Source: Nitrospirae bacterium MYbin3
GTDB taxonomy: Bacteria > Nitrospirota > Thermodesulfovibrionia > Thermodesulfovibrionales > Dissulfurispiraceae
Reading direction: 5' to 3'
Assembly: GCA_002753335.1 (NCBI GenBank)
Contig: PEAD01000003.1
Coordinates: forward strand, 124,001 to 183,080
Length of the DNA stretch: 59,080 nucleotides
In this document: in pieces, positions 39,396 through 56,200 of the stretch
Layout: every line of letters begins with the position of its first letter
How positions within the stretch are numbered: position 1 is the first letter of the stretch
Notes under the pieces: model-generated
What the model saw: the letters and a program-made list of their open reading frames with translations, nothing else
What the model was told of the DNA's origin: nothing
The model's database searches: none
Program-made: the position numbers and the translations under genes

Positions 39396-40046
39396 CTATG
39401 GAGCGGTGTGCTGCGTTGTGAATGTTGCTCCGTGTTTCGTTACGAACTGTGAATATAGATAGTTGTGGAATGCTGTCCAATTATTTGAATTGTTATACGT
39501 TGTATGTGCTTCACCTAATATATGATGCATAGTTGTTAAATCTAAAGAAGAACAAACATATTCGGCAACAGTAGTCAAGTTATTTCCAATTACTGCAGCA
39601 CCACCGCTTTGATCTGCTCCATAACTTGCAGTACCATAAACAGGCAAACAGTTAGTTGTTGTAGAAGAAGCAACACTTGTAGATGTTGTTCCGCCTGATG
39701 CTACAACCGCAACCGCAACTGCTGCTGCAACCGCAACTGCTGCTGCAATGGTTCCAGCACCAATTCCTGCTGCTGCTGCTGTTCCTGCTGCTGCGCCTGC
39801 TCCGGCTGCACCTGCTCCGGCTCCTGCAGCTCCACTTCCCGCACCGGCTCCAGCGCCTGATCCTGCTCCAGCACCACTTCCTGCACCGGCTCCACCACCT
39901 GATCCACCACTACCAGCACCTGCTGCGCTACCTTTTCCTGCTTCAGCGGCATATACCATTGTGGTATAGCCAGGCAACATAAAGGTACTCAGTACGAAGA
40001 TGCTGAAAAATACTAGAAAAATTCTTAAATCCAAAGTCTTTCTCAT
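39396..40046 (-). CDS. Exported Gly/Ala-rich low-complexity protein (YjbE/GfcA-like)
   Basis: AGGAGG RBS, signal peptide, GAGSGAG repeats, AAAVAVA hydrophobic stretch then TTSTS; directly downstream of yjbH. Confidence 0.7.
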   Translation of the reverse strand: MRKTLDLRIFLVFFSIFVLSTFMLPGYTTMVYAAEAGKGSAAGAGSGGSGGGAGAGSGAGAGSGAGAGAGSGAAGAGAGAAGAGAAAGTAAAAGIGAGTIAAAVAVAAAVAVAVVASGGTTSTSVASSTTTNCLPVYGTASYGADQSGGAAVIGNNLTTVAEYVCSSLDLTTMHHILGEAHTTYNNSNNWTAFHNYLYSQFVTKHGATFTTQHTAP

Positions 40047-44076: not shown

Positions 44077-44092
44077 TGGCACTAAAGTTGCA
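44077..44092 (+). promoter_or_regulatory. Sigma-54 (-24/-12) promoter
   Basis: TGGCAC-TAAAG-TTGCA matches the consensus TGGCAC-N5-TTGC(A/T). Confidence 0.85.
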
Positions 44093-44106: not shown

Positions 44107-44520
44107 ATGGCCGAGGCAGTAAGAAAAATTCTTCTTTGCAGCCAGCATCCTATATTTATAAAAGGCGTTTATGGAGCGCTCAGTGATGCCGGATATCAAA
44201 TTGAAACGAGCGAACATCCTGCCGGTGCCGTAAGGTCTGTATTTGATTCTTATTATTCTGTAGTAATTATTGATTCCAGAGATATAGGCTTACAAGCCTC
44301 GGATGCTGCTATGATAATCAGGACCGTAAGGCCTGATATTCATGTTGTGTTAATCGGAAAGTCCATTGTTGCTGATGGGTTTTATTCTGTAGAAAATCCT
44401 GATGAGATAGAACGAATAAAAGAGATTGTATCAAACATCTCAATTTTACATATGAAAGAAGCAAATAAAGGAGGAGTTTATGAGCATGACGCCGAGAGAG
44501 ATTGTATTAAAAGCCTTTGA
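44107..44520 (+). CDS. Atypical receiver-like (CheY-fold) protein
   Basis: KILLCSQH...AGYQIE...VVIIDS...IRTVRPDIHVVLIG pattern; lacks the acidic DD pair; overlaps the next gene by 41 nt. Confidence 0.6.
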   Translation: MAEAVRKILLCSQHPIFIKGVYGALSDAGYQIETSEHPAGAVRSVFDSYYSVVIIDSRDIGLQASDAAMIIRTVRPDIHVVLIGKSIVADGFYSVENPDEIERIKEIVSNISILHMKEANKGGVYEHDAERDCIKSL

Positions 44521-45523
44521 GGGCGGAAAGCCCGAAAGGGTCCCTGTCACCCTTTTTGGTGGTGGGATGTGGTCTATAAAGGATTACGGAACCAGTTTTG
44601 AAGAGCTTTCCAATAATGTAGAAAAGATGGCTGATATGTGTATCGTGGAGGCAGAAAAGATTAAGAGCGACGTGGTGTATGTGGGGTCGGGTTTTAATAA
44701 TTTTCATATGATTGCGCTTGGTGAAAAGTTTGGGTGCGGCGTGAAATATCGGGAGATCGGCGCTCCTGATGTCACCTCTCATTTTGTAAATTCAGAGGAA
44801 GATCTTGCCAAGCTCGATATGGATGATATTCATAAACATCCTGTTGTTAAGACCGTGATGGACGCCACAAGACTGGTAAATCAAAAAATAGGCAAAAAGT
44901 ATCTTGTTACCATGACCTGCTGGGGCCCATTTACGTTGGCTGCCCGCCTGGTTGGTGAAGAAACATTTATGAAGGCAACATTTAAGAAGCCTGCCTTTGT
45001 CGAGAAGGCTGTAGATTTTTGCGCCGACCTTTTAATTAAGTTGTATGAACCATTGATTGCAGATGGCATGGAATGCATAAGCATAGCAGATCCGACCGCC
45101 TCTGGTGATTTAATAAACCCTAAACAGATGGGACGTTTTGCAGTGCCACCTTTAAAGAAGCTGAGCGACTGGGCCAAGTCGAAAAATGCCCATACAATAC
45201 TTCATATCTGCGGCAATACAGGTGACCGTCTTGAGCAGTTTATAGACACCGGCTGCAGCGTTATCTTTTTCGATCAGAAAGTTGATATAGCAAAGGCGCG
45301 AGACGTTCTTTTCGGCAAGATGTGTTTTGGAGGTAACGTTGCTCCTGTGCATGTTCTGTTGAACAAGACCGCAGCGGATGTAGAACAGGCCTGCAAAGAG
45401 GTTATAGAAATAGCCGGCAAGGATGGCGGCTTTATATTGGTTCCGGGCTGCGATATCCCACCTACAATAAGTTTTGAAAATATTAAGATGTTTCACGATG
45501 TTGCGTTGAACTGGAAATATTGA
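44480..45523 (+). CDS. MtaA/CmuA-family methylcobamide:thiol methyltransferase 1 (URO-D fold)
   Basis: PERVPV, GPFTLA, ADPTAS, Zn motif LHICG...PGCDIP, GNVAP; AAGGAGG RBS. Confidence 0.85.
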   Translation: MSMTPREIVLKAFEGGKPERVPVTLFGGGMWSIKDYGTSFEELSNNVEKMADMCIVEAEKIKSDVVYVGSGFNNFHMIALGEKFGCGVKYREIGAPDVTSHFVNSEEDLAKLDMDDIHKHPVVKTVMDATRLVNQKIGKKYLVTMTCWGPFTLAARLVGEETFMKATFKKPAFVEKAVDFCADLLIKLYEPLIADGMECISIADPTASGDLINPKQMGRFAVPPLKKLSDWAKSKNAHTILHICGNTGDRLEQFIDTGCSVIFFDQKVDIAKARDVLFGKMCFGGNVAPVHVLLNKTAADVEQACKEVIEIAGKDGGFILVPGCDIPPTISFENIKMFHDVALNWKY

Positions 45524-45587: not shown

Positions 45588-46094
45588 ATGGGACTTTTGG
45601 ATCGCATTAAAAATTTTCTGGCCGGAGAGCCGGACATTAAAGCAGAGGAGGAAAAGAGTATGGCGATGACTGCAGAACAAGTAAATGAGTACATGAAAGA
45701 GAAGTGCGGGTTTGTGCCGAGGATGTTTCAGATAATTAACACGGTAACACCTGATCCGGGCAAGACTTTTGCTGATTTTTATGCGAGTATCTTCGGCGAC
45801 GGCGCTCTTTCGAGGAAGCACAAAGAGCTTATGTTCATGGCGGGTGGAGTTGCTTACTGTTCACCGCGCTGCATAATTCATGTCATCCCTGCCGCCAATG
45901 CAGGAGCGACATGGAATGAGGTTTTTGAGGCTGCTGCTGTCGGAATGATACTGGGCGGCTTTGTTCCTGGCGGCCCCGGCATACCATACGCATTTGAGTA
46001 TGCTCTTAAGTGCCTCGATATATTCGATAAGTACAAAAAAGGCGAGAAGTGGGAATATCTTCCATCTCCTAAATTCGACCACGGCGTATTCTAA
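45588..46094 (+). CDS. Carboxymuconolactone decarboxylase/AhpD-like family protein
   Basis: GFVPRMF, DGALSRKHKELM, CSPRCIIH, AGATWNEVFEA...GG. Confidence 0.8.
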   Translation: MGLLDRIKNFLAGEPDIKAEEEKSMAMTAEQVNEYMKEKCGFVPRMFQIINTVTPDPGKTFADFYASIFGDGALSRKHKELMFMAGGVAYCSPRCIIHVIPAANAGATWNEVFEAAAVGMILGGFVPGGPGIPYAFEYALKCLDIFDKYKKGEKWEYLPSPKFDHGVF

Positions 46095-46233
46095 GGACAG
46101 GGAAAAAGCGTGTGCCGGATTAGTTCGGTGCACGCCCCAAAATAAAAGGGGCAGCGCCTCATGCAAAGGCAACTGCCCGTGAGAATAAGATACAAAAATA
46201 TTTTAGCATAAGTTAATGATGAAAGGAGATAGA

Positions 46234-47193
46234 ATGTTCAGTTTTCAGAAAGAACAAAAGGTTTTCAACTTTAGCGGCATTCCGGTCGGCGGCCAGCCGG
46301 GCGAAAACCCGCCGCTTATGATAGCCTCGCTTTTTCACAATAAAGACAGCGTAAGCAAGACCGACCGCAAGGGCAATTTTGATCGTGAGGGAACAAAGGC
46401 GATGCTTGCGAAGATGGAGGAACTGTCCGAGGCTACAGGTGTGCCTGCGATGGTTGCGATGGTTGCCAACAGCCCTGAAGAAGCCAAGACATATATTGAT
46501 TTTTATCTGGAATCCACCAAAATGCCTTTTGGCATAGATATGTGGGTGGCTGAGCAGCGTGCCAGGGCGACCGAGTATGTGGCGCAGCTTGGGGTGCAGG
46601 ACAAATTTCTTTACAACAGCATCACCCCTTGGGATAAGGATATCAAGGGACAGGTTCAAAGGCTGAAGGACTTGGGAATAAAGCATGTTGTGATACAGGC
46701 TTTTGATGATAAAGACCAGTCTCCTGCTGGAAGAGTAACTTCGCTCGAATCTATCATGTCTCAGGGCGCCGATTCATTTGAGACGATAATTGTGGATACC
46801 TCGGTTATGAACATGCCGTCAACCTCATTTTCTCTTGTAGCCAATAGGATGATAAAAGAGAAGTATGGTCTGCCCTGCGGAGGCGCATATTCAAACGGCA
46901 CTCACATGTGGGGCGAGATTAAGCAGAAATGGGGACTCGACGGGTTCAAGGCTATGGATGCTGTTGTTCAGGGAATGGGTTCTGCGCTTTGGTCCGATTT
47001 TAACTTCTGCGGTCCGGCGATTACGGCTCCGCGCGTTTTCCCTGCAGTTGCCAGCGCTCACATTCTGCTATCAACGCTTGTATATGACGAAACAGGAAAT
47101 ATTTATGACAATCCAAACCTGCCTATCAGAAAACATTTTGCCGACTTCATAACAAAAATGCAGGAAGGCGGCGGCAGGAAAAAAGCCAAATAA
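46234..47193 (+). CDS. MtrH-family methylcorrinoid:pterin (THF/H4MPT) methyltransferase
   Basis: MFSFQKEQKVF...VGGQPGENP, LYNSI, IKEKYGLPCGGA.SN, resembling MtrH/MtgA. ATG at 46234 after AAGGAG. Confidence 0.85.
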   Translation: MFSFQKEQKVFNFSGIPVGGQPGENPPLMIASLFHNKDSVSKTDRKGNFDREGTKAMLAKMEELSEATGVPAMVAMVANSPEEAKTYIDFYLESTKMPFGIDMWVAEQRARATEYVAQLGVQDKFLYNSITPWDKDIKGQVQRLKDLGIKHVVIQAFDDKDQSPAGRVTSLESIMSQGADSFETIIVDTSVMNMPSTSFSLVANRMIKEKYGLPCGGAYSNGTHMWGEIKQKWGLDGFKAMDAVVQGMGSALWSDFNFCGPAITAPRVFPAVASAHILLSTLVYDETGNIYDNPNLPIRKHFADFITKMQEGGGRKKAK

Positions 47194-47213: not shown

Positions 47214-48242
47214 ATGAATTCAAGAGAAAGGGTTTTAAAGGTTTTTAAGGGAGAGCAGGTTGACCGTGTTCCATGTTTCAGCGGTATGGGCAATATAACG
47301 GAGGCAGCAATAAACCAGCTGGGATATAAATTTGCGGGCATCCATCTTGACGCAAAAATGATGGCAGAGACCGCAGCATCAACATACAAGATGTTCGGCC
47401 TTGAGTGCGGCGTAGTTCCTGTAGATCTTTGTGTAGAGGCCGAGGCGCTCGGCTGTGTAATCAATGTCTATCCGCAGGCCGAAGGCATACTCTATCCCAC
47501 CATAAAAGAAAAGCTTATACACAACGAAGGCGAGATGGATTCGGTAAATATTCCGGCTGACCTTGGATCAAGGGGCAGAGTGCCTCTGCTGATGGAGGCT
47601 ATTAAACTGATGAAGGCTGACATAGGCAGCGATGTTGCTGTCGGCTCTTATGTATTGGGTCCATTTACTTTGGCTGGGCAGATAATGGAGCTTAATGACC
47701 TTCTTAAGCTGTCATTTAAAAAAGCGGACAAAGTGGCTAAACTGCTCGACCTTATGGCTGACGCCATAATAGTAGTGGCAAAAGAGTATGAGAAGGCCGG
47801 CATTGATTACATCACAGTGCGAGAGATGGGCGCCACTTCTGATGTTCTCAGCCCGAGGGTATTTAAAAACCTGATAATGCCTCCGCTCCAAAAGATAAGC
47901 AAGGAGCTTAAGGTGTTTTCGGTGCTTCATATCTGCGGCAAGACCAACGATATAGTTATTCCTATGGCCGAGGCCGGATATACGGCTATCAGTGTAGAGC
48001 AGAAGAACGATGTTGCAGAGACGAGGAAAAAACTTGGCCCCGGAGCGATTATTTTCGGAAACTACGATCCCTACAATGTCCTTGTTTCTGGCACCGAAGA
48101 TCTTGTGAGGAGTACCATGCGAAAATGCATAGACGATGGAGTGAGTGCGATATGGCCAGGCTGCGATATATGGCCTACTGTTCCACCCCAGAACATGAAG
48201 GCTATGATGGATGAAACCATAAAATACGGAGGTAAAAGCTAA
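47214..48242 (+). CDS. MtaA/CmuA-family methylcobamide:CoM methyltransferase 2
   Basis: VDRVP, PVDLCVEAEALGC, GRVP, GPFTLAG, LSPRVF, LHICG...PGCDI, GNYDP. Confidence 0.88.
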   Translation: MNSRERVLKVFKGEQVDRVPCFSGMGNITEAAINQLGYKFAGIHLDAKMMAETAASTYKMFGLECGVVPVDLCVEAEALGCVINVYPQAEGILYPTIKEKLIHNEGEMDSVNIPADLGSRGRVPLLMEAIKLMKADIGSDVAVGSYVLGPFTLAGQIMELNDLLKLSFKKADKVAKLLDLMADAIIVVAKEYEKAGIDYITVREMGATSDVLSPRVFKNLIMPPLQKISKELKVFSVLHICGKTNDIVIPMAEAGYTAISVEQKNDVAETRKKLGPGAIIFGNYDPYNVLVSGTEDLVRSTMRKCIDDGVSAIWPGCDIWPTVPPQNMKAMMDETIKYGGKS

Positions 48243-48925
48243 TGGCAGACGACGCAAAGAAAAAAGAGATTTACGAAAAACTCAGAAACGGTGTTATCCA
48301 GTATGACGAAGACGCCTGCAAGGAAGGAGCGCAGGAGGCTATAGACGCCGGTCTTGATGCGAATGAGGCTATATTTGACGGCCTTGTTTCGGGTATGGAA
48401 GAGGTGGGCAGGCTGTTTGAGGCACAGGAATATTTTGTTCCCGAAATACTGATGTGTGCCGACGCGCTCTACGCAGGGCTTGATATTCTGAAGCCGCACT
48501 GCAAGCAGATGGACCTTGGCGTAAAAGGCTCGGTGGTTATTGGAACTGTTGAAGGCGATGTGCATGATATAGGAAAGAACCTTGTTAAGATGATGTTTGA
48601 TGTTGCAGGATTTAATGTTTATGACTTGGGCAGGGATGTTCCGCTCGACAAGTTTGTTGAAGAACAGCTGAAGACCGATTCAGAACTCGTCTGCCTTTCT
48701 GCAATGATGACCACTTCTATGGTCGGTATGCCTAAGGTTATCGAGAAGATAAAAGAGAAAAACCCAAACTGCATGATAATGATCGGCGGCGCGCCTACAT
48801 CAAAGGAGCTTGCTGACAAATGGGGTGCTGACGGCTATGCCGAAGACGCAAGCAATGCGCTGAAAGAGGCTATTAAAATGGTGGCTTTCCTCAAGAAACT
48901 GAGGGACGAGAAGCTGAAAAAATAA
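48242..48925 (+). CDS. Methyltransferase cognate corrinoid protein (MtaC/MttC-like)
   Basis: Cap domain (GMEEVG.LFE..EYFVPE) and B12 motif GDVHDIGKN...LSAMMTT...IGGAP...GADGY. Confidence 0.95.
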   Translation: MADDAKKKEIYEKLRNGVIQYDEDACKEGAQEAIDAGLDANEAIFDGLVSGMEEVGRLFEAQEYFVPEILMCADALYAGLDILKPHCKQMDLGVKGSVVIGTVEGDVHDIGKNLVKMMFDVAGFNVYDLGRDVPLDKFVEEQLKTDSELVCLSAMMTTSMVGMPKVIEKIKEKNPNCMIMIGGAPTSKELADKWGADGYAEDASNALKEAIKMVAFLKKLRDEKLKK

Positions 48926-49601: not shown

Positions 49602-51593
49602 ATGGCGCAAAAATTCAAGGTGATATTTCAGCCTGCAGGCAGGCGGGGAGAGATAGAAGAAGGCACAACAATACTTAAGGCGGCGCAGCAGTTAGGCGTT
49701 GACCTCGAAGCGCTTTGCGGAGACAAGAAGGTCTGCGGCAAATGCAAGGTCAGGATAGAGGAGGGATATTTTGAAAAGGACAATCTTGAGTCGGGCATGG
49801 CGCATATCACGCCGCTTGAGCCCACAACTGATGAGCTTAAGCATATCAAGCCCGAAGACGGTCCGGGCATAAGGCTGGCCTGCTCCTGCGAGATACACGG
49901 CGACCTGAAAGTTTTTGTGCCTGAACGTTCCAGAGCAGGAAAGCAGGTGGTGCGTAAAGCGGCCAAAGATATTATTATCGCTCTCGACCCGGCAGTCAAA
50001 AAATACACGCTGACGCTCACGCCGCCTACTCTGCATGACATGACCACCGGGGATTACGAGCGAATTGCAGCTGCTATGGAAAAGGACTACGGACTGAAGG
50101 GCCTTAAATTCGACTACTTGACGCTTAGGAGCACGCAGGATGCCTTGCGGGAAGGCGAATGGACGATTACCGTAACTGTATGGATGGACAAAGAGATAGT
50201 GAAGGTTGAGCCCGGACATGTGGATGTCTGCTACGGCCTTGCTGTAGATGTAGGCACAACCACCTGTGTAGGCTATCTTTGCGATCTTAGTACAGGCAAG
50301 GTTATCAACACTGAATCGATGATGAACCCTCAGGTGCCTTACGGAGAAGATGTAATGTCGCGCATAACTTATGCGATGACCAACCCGGAAGGGCTCAAAA
50401 CCATGCAGGACGCCATTATAACCGGCTTGAACGAAATAATAGACAAAGTAGTAAGCGAGGTAAGGAAAGACGGAGCAAATCCCGGATATTCTATTGACGA
50501 TCTGACGATAGTCTTTAATACCGCGATGCACCATATCTTTCTCGGCATGAATCCGACATATATAGGCCGTTCACCCTTCATACCTGCGGTGCAGCAATCT
50601 CTCGACATTAAAGCCCGTGATTTAGGGCTGCGCATCAATCCCGGTTCCTACATTCATGTGCTTCCTATAGAAGCCGGCTTTGTGGGTGCAGACAATGTGG
50701 GTGTTTTGATAGCTCAGGAGCCGTATAATCAGGACGAGAATGTTCTGATTATTGACATAGGAACCAATGGAGAACTTCTGCTCGGAAATAAAAATAGGGT
50801 TTGCTCTACATCATGCGCTACAGGACCGGCGTTTGAAGGCGCGCAGATAAAGTTCGGCATGAGGGCTGCGCCGGGCGCTATAGAAAAAGTGAAAATAGAT
50901 TACGAGACAAAAGAGCCTAAATATAAGGTTATCGGCAAGGCGGACTGGCACACTCATATTGAAGGTAAGATTAATGCCAAAGGCATATGCGGTTCGGCCA
51001 TAATTGATGTGATTGCAGAGATGTGCAAGGCAGGCATAATCGACAAGACCGGCAAGTTCGTTATGGATATTGGCACGAACAGGGTCAGAAAAGATGCTGA
51101 AGGTAAGCCTGAATATGTGCTTGCATGGGCTGAAGAAACCTCTATAAATGCTGACATAACGGTTACGCAGGGCGATGTCAGGGCGCTTCAGTTGGCCAAA
51201 GGCGCGCTGTACTGCGGCGCAAAGCTTATGATGAAAAAGATGGGCATAGAAAAACTGGACAGGGTTGAGCTTGCAGGCGCCTTCGGCAGCCATATTGACA
51301 GGGAGGCATCTTTGACGCTGGGCATGTTCCCTGATGTTCCGATCGACAAGGTTGTTGTTGTCGGAAATGCTGCTGGTGACGGCGCCCGGATGGCTCTTCT
51401 GAACAAAGGCAAGAGGATTGAGGCGGATGAACGCGCACGCTGGGTCGAGTTTGTGGAGATCGCAACAGACCCGACATTTGAGAAAGAATTCATGCAGGCT
51501 ATGCACATTCCGCACATGAAGGACAAATATCCGAACCTAAAGGCGCTGCTCGAGGAGCAAAAGGCGCCGATGGCGGCCAATATCAAGGGTTAG
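49602..51593 (+). CDS. ATP-dependent reductive activator of corrinoid proteins (RACo/RamA-like, ASKHA + 2Fe-2S)
   Basis: N-terminal C...CGKC...RLAC; DVGTTT, GEDVMSRI, GFVGAD, DIGTNGE, CATGPAFEG, GICGS, AGAFG, GNAA. Confidence 0.92.
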   Translation: MAQKFKVIFQPAGRRGEIEEGTTILKAAQQLGVDLEALCGDKKVCGKCKVRIEEGYFEKDNLESGMAHITPLEPTTDELKHIKPEDGPGIRLACSCEIHGDLKVFVPERSRAGKQVVRKAAKDIIIALDPAVKKYTLTLTPPTLHDMTTGDYERIAAAMEKDYGLKGLKFDYLTLRSTQDALREGEWTITVTVWMDKEIVKVEPGHVDVCYGLAVDVGTTTCVGYLCDLSTGKVINTESMMNPQVPYGEDVMSRITYAMTNPEGLKTMQDAIITGLNEIIDKVVSEVRKDGANPGYSIDDLTIVFNTAMHHIFLGMNPTYIGRSPFIPAVQQSLDIKARDLGLRINPGSYIHVLPIEAGFVGADNVGVLIAQEPYNQDENVLIIDIGTNGELLLGNKNRVCSTSCATGPAFEGAQIKFGMRAAPGAIEKVKIDYETKEPKYKVIGKADWHTHIEGKINAKGICGSAIIDVIAEMCKAGIIDKTGKFVMDIGTNRVRKDAEGKPEYVLAWAEETSINADITVTQGDVRALQLAKGALYCGAKLMMKKMGIEKLDRVELAGAFGSHIDREASLTLGMFPDVPIDKVVVVGNAAGDGARMALLNKGKRIEADERARWVEFVEIATDPTFEKEFMQAMHIPHMKDKYPNLKALLEEQKAPMAANIKG

Positions 51594-51923: not shown

Positions 51924-52622
51924 GTGAATCTGACCGGCATTATCCTGACATCCGCTTTATATATTGCGCTGCTTTTTTTTATTGGTGGAGTAATAGGACG
52001 TCTTATTATTTACTCAGAAGTTTCTACCGCAAATGGGACGCATAGTTTAAAGCGCCGTCCTCTATTTTTTTCGAGGATGTCGTCTATATTTTCGGAACTG
52101 TTTTTGCTTAAAAGGCTTATGAAGGCCAATCCTTTGCTTTGGGTCGGAGAGTGGCTGTTTCACATCTCTTTTGCTTTTGTTCTTTTGAGGCATCTGCGTT
52201 ATTTTATTGAGCCTGCGCCTGCGTGGCTTTTCGATTTCGATGTGTTTGGAATTATTTCGGGATTCATGCTTTTTTCCTCTCTGGTCTTTATTCTTGCGGT
52301 TAAGATGTTTATTGAAAGGGCTTATTTTTCTTCGTATAATTTTTCTTTGCTCGCACTGCTTGTTTTTATCAGCGTGACAGGGCTTTTGATGAACATGATT
52401 CTTAAAACCGATCTTGTCGAGATAAAGTTTTTCGCGATGGGAATAGCAACTTTTACGCCTCAGTCTTTACCAGTCAGCAGTATCTTTTTTACTCATTTTT
52501 TCTCCTTTATTATTTTTATTTTGCTTTTGCCTAGCCATATTTTTACTGCTCCAATAACTATATTAGAAGCCTTCAGGCGAGATGAAGATATTAAGACGAT
52601 AATGCATGATGAAAAAAAATAA
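51924..52622 (+). CDS. NarI/DsrM-like membrane cytochrome b
   Basis: About five TM segments; WLFH-x9-HLRYF as in DsrM/HmeC; second His pair TH...SH. Confidence 0.75.
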   Translation: MNLTGIILTSALYIALLFFIGGVIGRLIIYSEVSTANGTHSLKRRPLFFSRMSSIFSELFLLKRLMKANPLLWVGEWLFHISFAFVLLRHLRYFIEPAPAWLFDFDVFGIISGFMLFSSLVFILAVKMFIERAYFSSYNFSLLALLVFISVTGLLMNMILKTDLVEIKFFAMGIATFTPQSLPVSSIFFTHFFSFIIFILLLPSHIFTAPITILEAFRRDEDIKTIMHDEKK

Positions 52623-53826
52623 CTCTTTCACGAAAGACCTTTCGGCGCAGCAGCGCATCGAGATTGATGCCTGCACACAGTGCGGCGAATGCCTGAAATG
52701 CTGCCCTGTTCAGGAGGTTACCGGCAAACCAAAAATATCACCTCCCGAAAAAATGCGCATGTTCAGAGAGTTTATCAAAGCCACAGATGGCATGAAATCA
52801 AGGCTTTTCGGGCAGTCGGAGATTGATAAAGAACTTCTTGAGGATTTTACCAAAGCTGTTTATGAATGCACAGTCTGCGGAGCCTGCGGCGAAGCCTGCA
52901 CTGTTGGAATACACACGCAGAGGCTCTGGCCGATGCTGCGCAGGGAAATGGTCAAGAGGGGTTTGGGGCCGCTAGGTGTTCAGACAAAGATGCAGGAGGT
53001 CATAACGAACACAGGCAACCCGTACAACAAGCCTGCTTCTGAGCGCTTCAGTCCTTGGTTTCCTGCGCATGTTAGCGTTGAGGAAAAAGCGGAGATAGCC
53101 TACTACGCAGGATGCACAGGTGTTTATGAGGCGCAGCCTATGGTCAAAGGAGATGTGCTGATCTTAGGCGCATCGGGCGTTCCGTTTACAATGCTGCCAC
53201 CTGAAGATGAGGTCTGCTGCGGCTTTCCGTTGTTTATCACCGGCCAGCACGATATGCTGGAAGGACTTGTGAAAAGGCTCGTTGACGCTTACGCTGTGAG
53301 AGGAGTGAAGACACTGGTCTGCTCCTGCCCCTGCTGCGTGAATATCATGGCGAGGGACTGGCCTGCTTTTTACGGCAAGGAACTGCCTTTCAAAATACGC
53401 CACATATCACAGTTTACTATTGATGCGCTGAATAGCGGCGCATTGCGCTTTAAGAGAGAGTTGAACGAGCGCCTAATTTACCATGACCCTTGCTATCTCT
53501 CCAGAGGTGTCGGAGTCATAGAAGAACCGAGGTCTGTGCTGCGGAGCATCCCGGGGGTTGAGCTTGTTGAGTTCGAGCGCCATGGCATGGATTCAAGGTG
53601 CTGCGGCTCCGGAGGCGCGGCAAGAAAGGTCTTTCATGACAACGCCATAGCCATGGGAAGGCTTGCAATAGATGAGGCTGTGGCAAAAAAGGCTGACAGG
53701 CTTATACTTGCATGTCCTGCCTGCTATGCTAAAGTTAATGAAGCTATGTCTGACCACGATAAAAAGATAAAGATCACTGATATAATGGAACTTGCAGCAG
53801 AAATGATTGATTGCGGGGAGAGATGA
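52606..53826 (+). CDS. HdrD-like Fe-S oxidoreductase (2x[4Fe-4S] + 2 CCG domains)
   Basis: CTQCGECLKCCP, CTVCGACGEAC, GNP, YYAGC, EVCCG, CPCC, YHDPC, RCCG, CPAC. Confidence 0.88.
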   Translation: MMKKNNSFTKDLSAQQRIEIDACTQCGECLKCCPVQEVTGKPKISPPEKMRMFREFIKATDGMKSRLFGQSEIDKELLEDFTKAVYECTVCGACGEACTVGIHTQRLWPMLRREMVKRGLGPLGVQTKMQEVITNTGNPYNKPASERFSPWFPAHVSVEEKAEIAYYAGCTGVYEAQPMVKGDVLILGASGVPFTMLPPEDEVCCGFPLFITGQHDMLEGLVKRLVDAYAVRGVKTLVCSCPCCVNIMARDWPAFYGKELPFKIRHISQFTIDALNSGALRFKRELNERLIYHDPCYLSRGVGVIEEPRSVLRSIPGVELVEFERHGMDSRCCGSGGAARKVFHDNAIAMGRLAIDEAVAKKADRLILACPACYAKVNEAMSDHDKKIKITDIMELAAEMIDCGER

Positions 53827-55085
53827 GCCATTTCAACATAAGATGCAGAGCGTGCGGAAAGAGTTTAGAACATGTTTACTGCGCTTTTTGCGAACACTGC
53901 AAAGATGCTCTTCTCGTAACCGAATACCACGACAAACTATTTTCCGAAAAAGATTCAGCCGGTATCTGGAAATACAACTGGCTTCCTGTGCATTTATCCA
54001 GCTTTGAACAACCCGGTCCGGTGGTTTATAAATCAGAAGAGCTTGCGGACGAACTCGAACTGAGAAATCTTTATATAGTCTTCAACGGGTATTGGCCCGA
54101 AAGAGGTGCGTTTATAGAAACCTGCACCTTCAAGGAATTTGAGGCTGCTGTGGTTTTGCAGAACGCAATCGACAACGGAATCGAAGGCCTGACAGTGGCG
54201 TCTGCCGGAAACACCGCAAGGGCATTTGCTCATCTCTCTTCAATCTCAGGCTTCCCTGTTCTTATAGTAGTGCCGAGGATGTGCCTTTCTGAAATGTGGT
54301 ATCTCGAAAGCCATACGGGGATTTCTACTTTTGTTGTGGGTGACGGCGACTATTCTAATGCTATAGATGTGGCAAAGAGGATTGCTATGGCATCTGGTAT
54401 GCCGTTTGAAGGAGGCACCAAGAATATTGCCAAGAGGGACGGGCTTGGCATTGTGATGCTTGAGGCTGTATCGAAAATAGGCAGGCTTCCGGACCACTAT
54501 TTTCAGGCTGTCGGTAGCGGAGCCGGAGCTGTCGGCGTATGGGAAATGTGCGAAAGGTTTTTGAGGGACGGACGCTTCGGTTCCAGTTTTCCGCAGATGC
54601 ATCTTGCCCAAAACGCGCCTTTTGCTCCTATGGTCAAGGCTTGGCTGAAGGGCAGCCGCAGTCTGTTTGCAGAAGATTTAAGACCTGAACTTATAGGCGA
54701 AATTTCTACAAGGGTTCTTTCAAGCAGGTATCCCGCCTACAGCGTTAAGGGCGGTGTTTATGACGCGCTTACCGCGACAAACGGAATGACCTACGGTATA
54801 AGGAACGAGGATGTATTTGTTGCACAGAATATATTTCACGCTGCCGAGGGGATAGATGTTGTGCCTGCCGCAGGCGTTGCTGTCGCAGCGCTGATGAGCG
54901 CAGTGAATTCTGGAGCTGTTCGCAAAAACGATACTATCCTGCTTAATATAACCGGCGGCGGAGAGAAGCATTTCAAAGACAAGAACAAGGCCCATATGCT
55001 CTCCGAGCCTGTTTTCGTGTCAAAAGACATTACCGATGATGATATGGAGAAACTGCTATGCGATACCCTGAAAAAGAACTCATAG
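53823..55085 (+). CDS. Cysteate synthase (threonine-synthase-related PLP enzyme, Methanosarcina type)
   Basis: FNGYWPERGA, TCTFKEFEA, ASAGNTARAF, EGGTKNIAKRDG, PDHYFQAVGSG, AQNAPF, LNITGGG; ATGA overlap with the upstream stop. Confidence 0.87.
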   Translation: MSHFNIRCRACGKSLEHVYCAFCEHCKDALLVTEYHDKLFSEKDSAGIWKYNWLPVHLSSFEQPGPVVYKSEELADELELRNLYIVFNGYWPERGAFIETCTFKEFEAAVVLQNAIDNGIEGLTVASAGNTARAFAHLSSISGFPVLIVVPRMCLSEMWYLESHTGISTFVVGDGDYSNAIDVAKRIAMASGMPFEGGTKNIAKRDGLGIVMLEAVSKIGRLPDHYFQAVGSGAGAVGVWEMCERFLRDGRFGSSFPQMHLAQNAPFAPMVKAWLKGSRSLFAEDLRPELIGEISTRVLSSRYPAYSVKGGVYDALTATNGMTYGIRNEDVFVAQNIFHAAEGIDVVPAAGVAVAALMSAVNSGAVRKNDTILLNITGGGEKHFKDKNKAHMLSEPVFVSKDITDDDMEKLLCDTLKKNS

Positions 55086-56200
55086 GCATTCTTCAGGCGG
55101 CAGGCGTTGATTTCACCTGCTCGCTTCCGTGCGAGAAGATCAAGATTCTACTCGAAATGATTCAGGATAATTTTACCCATATCCCTCTTACGAGAGAAGA
55201 GGAGGGGGTGGGGATATGCGCTGGGGCTGCTCTTTCTGGACGTAAACCCGCAATGTTTGTGCAGAGTTCGGGCATCGGCAATATGATCAATGCCTTGCTT
55301 TCGTTGACCGGATTTTATGAGCTGCCGCTTGCTATCTTTGTAAGCCAGCGCGGCATTTATAAAGAAAAGATAGCTGCCCAGTTTCCGATGGGAAGGAATC
55401 TAACAGGGATTTTAGAGGGAGCGAAAATAGGTTATACGCTTATTCACAGGCGTGTGGATTTCAAAGTCATAAAGAGAAAACTGGACTCGATTTATAAGTT
55501 CGGAAAGATTCATGTTTTTTTAATTAGTCCTGCCGTATGGGAAAATTCTGAGGCGATAAGCAAAGGCATATCGGTTCAGCCGCATGAGAGAAGAACAGGC
55601 TTGGACAGTTTTCCCTGCACGCTGCATCCTGTTTCTCCGCCTGCCTTTACGCGTTATGAACTGCTTGGGGGCATAGCTCCATTTCTGTCTTCAAAAGTTG
55701 TTGTATGCAACTTGGGTTTTCCTGCAAAGGAAGTTTATGAGATTAAGCATCAGCCGTCTAATTTTTATATGCTCGGCAGCATGGGGCTTGCGACCTCGAT
55801 CGGCCTCGGCATAAGTCTGACAACAAAAAGAGAAGTTGTGGTTATAGATGGCGACGGCAGTATCCTTATGAACCCAGGAGGATTGGCAACCGCAGCTTAC
55901 AGCAATCCCCAAAACCTTACTATTATTGCGATCGACAACGGGGCTTACGGTTCAACCGGAAGCCAGCCTACGCTTGCCGGTTCATGCGTTGACTTGGAGC
56001 TTCTGGCTAAAGGCTTTGGGATAAGCAACACCATAAAAGTTTCTAAAATGAAGCAGCTCTCTGATGCTCTGAAAAAACATAAGCACGGGCTGTTTTTTGT
56101 CCATGCCCTCGCTATTCCGGGCAACCGTGATGTTCCGAATATACCTATAACTCACATCGAGATCAAAAAATCAGTCCAGAAATTTCTGAGTAAAAAGTAA
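55058..56200 (+). CDS. comDE: Sulfopyruvate decarboxylase, fused alpha/beta subunits
   Basis: ComD half: SLPCE, TREEEGVGICAG, QSSGIGNMINALLSL. ComE half: NLGFPAKE, NFYMLGSMG, TPP motif GDGS...DNG, YGSTG.QPT. Confidence 0.9.
   Translation: MRYPEKELIGILQAAGVDFTCSLPCEKIKILLEMIQDNFTHIPLTREEEGVGICAGAALSGRKPAMFVQSSGIGNMINALLSLTGFYELPLAIFVSQRGIYKEKIAAQFPMGRNLTGILEGAKIGYTLIHRRVDFKVIKRKLDSIYKFGKIHVFLISPAVWENSEAISKGISVQPHERRTGLDSFPCTLHPVSPPAFTRYELLGGIAPFLSSKVVVCNLGFPAKEVYEIKHQPSNFYMLGSMGLATSIGLGISLTTKREVVVIDGDGSILMNPGGLATAAYSNPQNLTIIAIDNGAYGSTGSQPTLAGSCVDLELLAKGFGISNTIKVSKMKQLSDALKKHKHGLFFVHALAIPGNRDVPNIPITHIEIKKSVQKFLSKK

Follow-up and report, generated by a model that had tools for sequence, protein, structure and literature searches.

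A cysteate synthase–ComDE gene pair at the end of a methyltransferase–HdrED operon of Nitrospirota and its possible role in the synthesis of coenzyme M or a related thiol

Identity of the cysteate synthase and ComDE

The window, i.e., the whole stretch of DNA analysed here, comprises 59,080 nucleotides from Nitrospirae bacterium MYbin3 (contig PEAD01000003.1, positions 124,001 to 183,080), whose genome of 2.93 Mb is 93.7% complete. Two overlapping genes of this window code for a cysteate synthase (gene cs in the following) and a fused sulfopyruvate decarboxylase, ComDE. We suggest that both proteins make coenzyme M (CoM) or a close two-carbon sulfonate thiol, which would serve as methyl carrier for the enzymes encoded in the same operon, and we estimate the probability of this reading at roughly 0.58. 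As judged from sequence comparisons, the two genes are confirmed as real and correctly named:

53823..55085, + strand: cysteate synthase, pyridoxal phosphate dependent (Lys104 in TFKE), 420 aa from the ATG; TIGR03844
55058..56200, + strand: fused sulfopyruvate decarboxylase ComDE, thiamine diphosphate (ThDP) dependent, 380 aa; TIGR03845 and TIGR03846

An earlier note on this DNA had described cysteate synthase motifs and a single-chain ComD–ComE in adjoining overlapping genes, and all of these are present: NGYWPERGA is located at residue 88, TCTFKEFEA at residue 100, and EGGTKNIAKRDG at residue 196, and the genes overlap by 28 nt. The cysteate synthase matches TIGR03844 with 468 bits (cut-off 324.9) and the top threonine synthase model with 96 bits. 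It is 45% identical over 406 aa to MA3297 of Methanosarcina acetivorans (P0380 = Q8TKU7), with the region of Lys104 aligned, and a search of the structure database yields PDB 9K3C with an E value of 7e-92, the best threonine synthase having 3e-13. The closest relatives, up to 89% identical, are in records titled Nitrospirae or Thermodesulfovibrionales. ComDE exceeds the cut-off of the ComD model TIGR03845 (179 versus 148 bits), is marginally below that of the ComE model TIGR03846 (216.6 versus 221.5 bits), and contains the ThDP motif DGDGS...N. It is 42–47% identical to methanogen-type ComDE and 27–29% identical to AepY. In public databases Nitrospirota proteins of both families bear the names cysteate synthase and sulfopyruvate decarboxylase.

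That the genes instead code for a threonine synthase paralogue and a phosphonopyruvate decarboxylase is extremely improbable: the superfamilies are in common and the phosphonopyruvate decarboxylase model TIGR03297 gives a match of 201 bits, but this is 111 bits short of its cut-off of 312.5 bits, the threonine synthase match is likewise far below the cut-off, the threonine synthase paralogues sit elsewhere at 22–23% identity, phosphoenolpyruvate (PEP) mutase was not found among the operon genes, and in the trees, which the earlier note had proposed as a check, ThrC and AepY are set apart from our proteins with 100/100 support.

Organization and control of the operon

The earlier note had missed the context of the gene pair, which is no free-standing unit. 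Instead, both genes are the end of a conserved methyltransferase–HdrED operon, which points to the likely use of their product. The operon consists of 13 genes on the same strand, begins at 44107, and has no intergenic gap longer than 121 nt. Along hdrE/hdrD/cs/comDE the genes overlap by 17, 4, and 28 nt, and the start codon of cs and the stop codon of the hdrD-like gene share the sequence ATGA. Upstream of the pair the following features are found:

44077..44091, + strand: sigma-54 (-24/-12) promoter-like site, the sole match without mismatch in the window, ahead of the operon
44107..44520, + strand: small receiver-like protein, operon gene 1; weak response-regulator matches, conserved first gene in relatives
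44480..45523, + strand: MtaA-like methyltransferase 1 (MtaA1), UroD family, with H-x-C...C zinc-thiolate motif; TIGR01463 199 bits, below cut-off
45588..46094, + strand: CMD/AhpD-like protein with C-x3-C motif; PF02627, 67% identity to a Hydrothermarchaeota copy
46216..47193, + strand: MtrH/MtgA-family methyltransferase, for which we predict the corrinoid-to-folate step; PRK00979 319 bits versus a cut-off of 287
47214..48242, + strand: MtaA-like methyltransferase 2 (MtaA2) with H-x-C...C; PRK06252 (methylcobalamin:CoM methyltransferase subfamily) 261 bits versus a cut-off of 244, below the MtaA equivalog cut-off
48242..48925, + strand: methyltransferase cognate corrinoid protein; TIGR02370 212 bits, PF02310, PF02607
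48930..49589, + strand: QueG/reductive-dehalogenase-like 4Fe-4S protein, from profile matches
49602..51593, + strand: RACo-type ATP-dependent corrinoid activase; PF14574, PF17651, PF17650, PF00111
51594..51914, + strand: DUF6951 protein; PF22263
51924..52622, + strand: HdrE/DsrM-like membrane subunit; NF038037, weak match
52606..53826, + strand: HdrD-like Fe-S protein with two CCG domains; PF02754 twice, Fer4_8; stop overlaps the cs start

The H-x-C...C motif is retained in both MtaA-like proteins and in their homologues; such a His-Cys-Cys motif set is tied to sulfur and selenium methyltransferases (PMC10418091). Among 30 Nitrospirota loci, one of which stops at a contig end and some of which may share a genome, hdrD lies immediately 5′ of cs in 26 and comDE immediately 3′ in 28. 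A lytic transglycosylase gene and nadA follow closely 3′ of the operon and are retained only in a same-genus relative.

The operon is probably driven by sigma-54, as judged from the position of the promoter-like site. When one mismatch is allowed the window contains 15 matches to the motif, a number within chance (mean 10). In four of seven homologous loci, however, the motif lies 15–17 nt 5′ of the first gene, compared with a background of 1.5% per 300 nt. Adjoining the operon are genes for a histidine kinase, a sigma-54 activator, and a CobW-type GTPase in three relatives (L072:4250-9807, L067:14098-17520, L074:5172-7133); in L072 they sit between the operon and an ssuA-like gene (see below). 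In addition, a gene for a soluble-looking chemoreceptor with an MCP signal domain is inserted between the RACo gene and hdrE in L023, L025, and L026, and one is also inserted in L081; L029 and L030 carry a second HdrE/HdrD-like gene at the former position, and in L007 (genome G006) a chemoreceptor gene, not comDE, comes after cs. Taken together, the promoter-like site, the kinase/activator pair, and the chemoreceptor genes suggest induction by an external substrate.

In three loci (L027, L029, L034) several operon genes are in pieces, probably due to sequencing frameshifts. Elsewhere in the window, an open reading frame at 39396-40046 contains a long Gly/Ala/Ser low-complexity stretch and lies 5′ of an outer-membrane gene which we take to be YjbH-like.

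Distribution and genomic background

Out of 301 Nitrospirota genomes, 58 contain cs, 55 of them with a match above the cut-off. The gene occurs in 12 of 41 near relatives, is patchy within the family of MYbin3, and is common in a family of another class (f22). Co-occurrence was assessed with 61 cs-positive genomes and with 19 of 29 cs-negative near relatives picked for high completeness. An orthologue of MtaA2 is present in 59/61 cs-positive and in 0/19 cs-negative genomes, the two misses both being less than 70% complete, whereas acsB (52/61 and 19/19) and dsrA (58/61 and 17/19) do not follow cs; as these genomes are kin, the counts are not independent tests. Thus, the sulfonate genes go together with the methyltransferase module, and the genes of Dsr and the Wood–Ljungdahl pathway are a background common to both groups of genomes.

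MYbin3 itself carries dsrABD, cooS/acsBCDE, MetF, and SerA with an adjoining class V aminotransferase. The earlier note had supposed that transamination is supplied in trans, and a candidate is an aspartate aminotransferase (AspAT)-like gene on another contig (C61:7011-8207), whose best model match is 484 against a cut-off of 617. McrA was not found in this 93.7% complete genome, and its Xsc match is below the cut-off. No cysteate acyltransferase for sulfonolipid synthesis was seen in a motif scan, which divergent members can escape; the sole protein with the AOS motif is BioF.

The missing ComF step and an SsuA-fold protein

In M. acetivorans the main CoM synthase is MMP16, a COG1900 protein, with L-ASST and sulfide as a back-up, and the transamination of cysteate is carried out by a non-specific enzyme (PMC12068725). 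The earlier note had stated that the MYbin3 cluster contains neither an aminotransferase nor a recognisable ComF, and in agreement with this neither was found among the cluster genes in family-model searches. Nor did a search of the whole genome, which is 93.7% complete, find COG1900: TIGR03287 gave matches to ferredoxin segments only and PF01837 none. An assembly gap is ruled out as the cause, as COG1900/ComF is found in 0/58 cs-positive Nitrospirota; PF01837 occurs in 10/301 Nitrospirota, all of them cs-negative. A gene of about 500 aa ahead of hdrE in relatives, considered as ComF, is actually the chemoreceptor or the second HdrED described above. Since ComF is missing across the lineage sample and not only in the cluster, CoM as the product can only be inferred, and we class the pathway as a variant of the type 2 CoM route which is the same up to sulfoacetaldehyde and lacks ComF.

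A candidate for the last step is an SsuA-fold protein. Genes of the SsuA family lie directly 3′ of comDE in L032 (Ca. Hydrothermarchaeota) and L033. The MYbin3 gene is outside the window (C61:2231-3130, corresponding to L049:1501-2400) and is a 46% identical orthologue of the archaeal gene. Within Nitrospirota the protein is present in 57/58 cs-positive and 5/243 cs-negative genomes, the five being drafts of family f22, and its gene often lies just outside either end of the operon. In 31 genomes of the phylum of L032 the orthologue is found in 13/13 cs-positive and, save one paralogue of 29% identity, in 0/18 cs-negative genomes; PF01837 is present there in 1/13 and 4/18, respectively. Of 13 Hydrothermarchaeota loci, 11 have the ssuA-like gene directly 3′ of comDE and one has it divergent from cs, whereas the remaining one stops at a contig end. 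In most Methanosarcina-like metagenome loci with comDE, a DUF39 gene on the opposite strand takes the place after comDE, and an SsuA-like gene was seen in 0/80 loci.

In 116 of 120 homologues the first motif of the SsuA-fold protein begins at most 12 residues from the N-terminus. As the chain thus starts at its first motif, the protein has no signal peptide. Seven residues are invariant in all 22 rows of the alignment (His13, Cys71, His76, Glu78, His118, Asp144, His213), and four of these (His13, His76, Glu78, His118) align with identical residues in 3UN6, which is zinc-bound by its title. The predicted model (pLDDT 88.7) matches TauA as top hit, zinc-bound 3UN6, SsuA, and the enzyme Thi5. In M. 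acetivorans, an SsuA protein is the subunit of the CoM transporter which binds CoM (PMC12068725). Furthermore, a conserved gene of 137 aa, which by eye looks flavin-binding-like, lies convergent to the ssuA-like gene in Hydrothermarchaeota (L101:7920-8333, L032, L033, L103, L105-L108); for this gene tblastn gave no match in the MYbin3 genome.

Several observations speak against a role of this protein in thiol formation. The MYbin3 copy has Trp (TGG) at position 254, where 119 of 120 homologues have Cys, and the C-terminal HP..DHY tail is absent; both the Trp254 and the short C-terminus are either decay or sequence error. To our knowledge there is no catalytic precedent for aldehyde thiolation by an SsuA-fold protein. 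The protein may do no more than bind a sulfonate, and by co-occurrence a synthase and a binder cannot be told apart.

Evolutionary origin

Among the Hydrothermarchaeota one stretch (L097, genome G332) contains nearly the whole module at 37–67% identity: MtaA1 47%, HdrD 42%, CMD 67%, MtaA2 54%, corrinoid protein 63%, RACo 56%, MtrH 38%, cs 47%, and comDE 53%, together with DUF6951, HdrE-like, and SsuA-fold genes. Parts of the module are found in G326, G331, G320, G342, and G324, and five further loci have cs, comDE, and the ssuA-like gene alone. Hydrothermarchaeota have been described to contain mtrH and methyltransferases without mcr, and an alternate fate of methyl-CoM has been suggested (PMC6775978).

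In the ComDE tree (32 rows, IQ-TREE LG+G4) the Nitrospirota form a clade (97/99) which groups with Hydrothermarchaeota (96/92), the Methanosarcinales-like proteins are a separate clade (100/98), and AepY is on a long branch. In the cs tree (43 rows) the Nitrospirota are a clade with 100/100 support and group with Hydrothermarchaeota, Ca. Hecatella, and Nitrospinota (94/96, just below the starred level); an earlier FastTree run placed Nitrospirota sister to all archaeal rows. The term Methanosarcina-type used by the earlier note thus holds at the family level only. In both trees, however, the nearest archaeal relatives are the non-methanogenic Hydrothermarchaeota, yet in the approximately unbiased (AU) test, which covers the ComDE tree alone, a clade of Nitrospirota and Methanosarcinales-like proteins is not rejected (p=0.22). 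The trees also support the archaea–bacteria link supposed by the earlier note.

A single old acquisition in Nitrospirota, common to the non-methanogenic archaea, would fit these trees best. We hold a recent transfer to be unlikely, as the G+C contents of cs (48%) and comDE (46%) are near that of the genome (44%) and the Nitrospirota copies are one clade across classes. The Nitrospinota cysteate synthases (P0231, P0198, P0361) nest among Hydrothermarchaeota and not with those of Nitrospirota, which suggests that bacteria acquired the gene a second time. A cysteate synthase is also present in Ca. Hecatella orcuttiae. Seven of eight cysteate synthases without comDE form a separate clade, with L194 joining it, and one is a long-branch row among methanogen rows. 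Both Streptomyces rows fall outside the group of Nitrospirota, Hydrothermarchaeota, Ca. Hecatella, and Nitrospinota. These Streptomyces plasmid cysteate synthases (L115, L116; 38–40% identity) lie within peptide-antibiotic clusters, with nonribosomal peptide synthetase and dpg genes in L115 and a type III polyketide synthase and MbtH in L116.

Proposed pathway and alternative roles

The gene content suggests how the thiol might be made and used. SerA and the adjoining class V aminotransferase would provide phosphoserine and the dissimilatory sulfur metabolism would provide sulfite; the genes are seen and we presume the flux. Cysteate synthase would then form cysteate, a housekeeping aminotransferase sulfopyruvate, and ComDE sulfoacetaldehyde, if the chemistry is that of M. 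acetivorans. ComF would have no part in the formation of the thiol; the cytoplasmic SsuA-fold protein would most likely act here as catalyst or product binder, and sulfide and perhaps HdrD-derived electrons might enter, as the co-occurrence of the genes suggests. Subsequently, one MtaA-like enzyme may transfer the methyl group of a methanethiol- or dimethyl-sulfide-type compound via the corrinoid protein to the thiol, and the other MtaA-like enzyme, together with the MtrH-like one, may pass it to tetrahydrofolate for the Wood–Ljungdahl pathway. RACo would keep the cobalt active, and HdrED would couple the conversion between thiol and disulfide to the quinone pool of the membrane. We favour this inward flux on account of the sigma-54 control and the chemoreceptor genes.

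We consider it somewhat more probable than not that the methyltransferases use the product of the pair and that this product is CoM or a close thiol. The full inward scheme from a methyl-sulfur compound to folate we hold to be less likely than not. Still more speculative is the idea that sulfite-reducing Nitrospirota and Hydrothermarchaeota have a common module with a COG1900-independent CoM synthase, i.e., the cytoplasmic and probably zinc-binding SsuA-fold protein, and an entry of methyl-CoM into anaerobic methyl-sulfur oxidation free of methyl-CoM reductase (MCR), pulled by thiol/disulfide conversion at HdrED. A study of MecE/MecB/MecC reportedly describes CoM as a methyl acceptor in a bacterium, which would be a precedent for the methyl transfer to the thiol proposed here.

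Apart from the reservations on the SsuA-fold protein and the kinship of the counted genomes, further points weigh against CoM synthesis with inward methyl flux. With no COG1900/ComF found in MYbin3 or in any of the 58 cs-positive Nitrospirota genomes, the defining last step of CoM synthesis is absent. The transfer of methyl groups from a thioether to folate is uphill, by about +30 kJ/mol for the Mtr reaction, and the operon is without the ion-pumping Mtr subunits. In the genomes G298, G029, G006, and G011, cs-comDE is partly or wholly apart from the methyltransferase genes. Moreover, neither MtaA-like protein reaches the MtaA/MtbA equivalog cut-offs, and MtaA-like enzymes also methylate sulfide or selenide (PMC10418091).

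Of the alternative roles, the first is a variant which has the synthesis of CoM in common with our main reading. The flux could be outward, from methyl-tetrahydrofolate via the corrinoid protein and CoM to sulfide, and the release of methanethiol or dimethyl sulfide would then dispose of electrons or sulfide. For a soluble MtrH–corrinoid–MtaA chain this direction is the downhill one, as established for methanogens; an MCR that would consume methyl-CoM was not found in the MYbin3 genome, and the alternate fate of methyl-CoM suggested for Hydrothermarchaeota (PMC6775978) would agree with it. On the other hand, Dsr is the better electron sink in the host cells, and the sigma-54/two-component control and the inserted chemoreceptors better fit the uptake of an outside substrate, so that we regard outward flux as unlikely, at about one chance in five.

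We give a similarly low weight to the possibility that sulfoacetaldehyde is converted to isethionate, taurine, sulfoacetate, or another sulfonate bound by the SsuA-fold protein and that the methyltransferases use a different thiol or sulfide. In favour of this, no ComF-family gene was found in MYbin3 or in the 58 cs-positive Nitrospirota, generic dehydrogenases or aminotransferases could complete such a route, and the top structural match of the SsuA-fold protein is the taurine-binding TauA. However, the operon is not accompanied by a reductase or aminotransferase of this kind, the low Xsc match and the outcome of the motif scan for a sulfonolipid acyltransferase do not favour it, and the tight link to thiol methyltransferases and HdrD across two domains of life would be left unexplained.

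Less probable again is that CoM acts mainly as a redox buffer of low molecular weight, with HdrED and the AhpD-like protein recycling it and the methyltransferases repairing or removing methylated thiol. In support of this, hdrD shows the tightest coupling to cs of all genes and stays beside it in L076 and L099, where the methyltransferases lie elsewhere, and overexpression of comDE has been reported, in the title of PMC12713407, to give oxidative protection. A five-protein B12 system with an ATP-dependent activase, which co-occurs almost perfectly, would nevertheless be costly for repair.

If a thiol carrier is indeed made, CoM would gain a new physiological role, methyl transfer without MCR, in about a fifth of the sampled Nitrospirota (58/301), and the operon could be a source of genes for the anaerobic turnover of methyl sulfides in soils, aquifers, and sediments. 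In addition, the SsuA-fold protein would be a concrete candidate for a second enzyme of the long-obscure aldehyde-to-thiol step.

Comparison with known systems

Three routes to CoM are described in the literature, and the phosphoserine route is placed in methanogens only in the parts of PMC12068725 and PMC9457059 used here. We found no description of cs-comDE or of CoM synthesis in Nitrospirota or Hydrothermarchaeota in a search of titles and the starts of abstracts, which left most subscription papers outside. The word cysteate has no match in the main texts of PMC10203281, PMC11033732, PMC8906906, PMC9635834, and PMC10418091, and the main text of the last has no mention of ComD, MtrH, or Nitrospir either; these negatives cover main texts, and novelty may also depend on the supplementary genome tables of PMC12068725 and PMC9635834. 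Neither a cysteate synthase alone nor comDE alone is new in bacteria: cysteate synthase occurs singly as Cys/CapA of sulfonolipid synthesis in Bacteroidota (PMC11211663), and roseobacters have comDE as split genes without cs in the regions examined, in contrast to the fused comDE with cs in MYbin3.

The closest characterized system is the type 2 route of M. acetivorans (cs MA3297, comDE MA3298, MMP16/ComF MA3299; PMC12068725), where the deletion strains of cs, comDE, and MMP16 are conditional CoM auxotrophs. As in MYbin3, cs and a fused comDE adjoin, and the cluster as presented there is likewise without an aminotransferase. MYbin3 differs in being a bacterium in which no MCR and no COG1900 were found, in having methyltransferase and HdrED genes joined to the pair, and in that a signal-less SsuA-fold gene co-occurs in its lineage in place of COG1900. 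CoM is also made in the bacterium Xanthobacter autotrophicus Py2 by XcbA-E (PMC9457059), there starting from PEP with unrelated enzymes and for epoxide metabolism. The type 1 mlp clusters of non-methanogenic anaerobes (Kountz and Balskus, PMC10418091) have, as in MYbin3, at least two MtaA-like His-Cys-Cys methyltransferases, a corrinoid protein, and an activase. They are defined by having no folate methylase within 20 kb, whereas the MYbin3 operon holds an MtrH/MtgA-family gene of presumed folate specificity. Finally, the cs-comDE-ssuA-like loci of Ca. Hydrothermarchaeota have the same accessory genes and are the nearest archaeal relatives in both trees; their gene order is different, with the ssuA-like gene adjoining comDE and not, as in MYbin3, on a separate contig.

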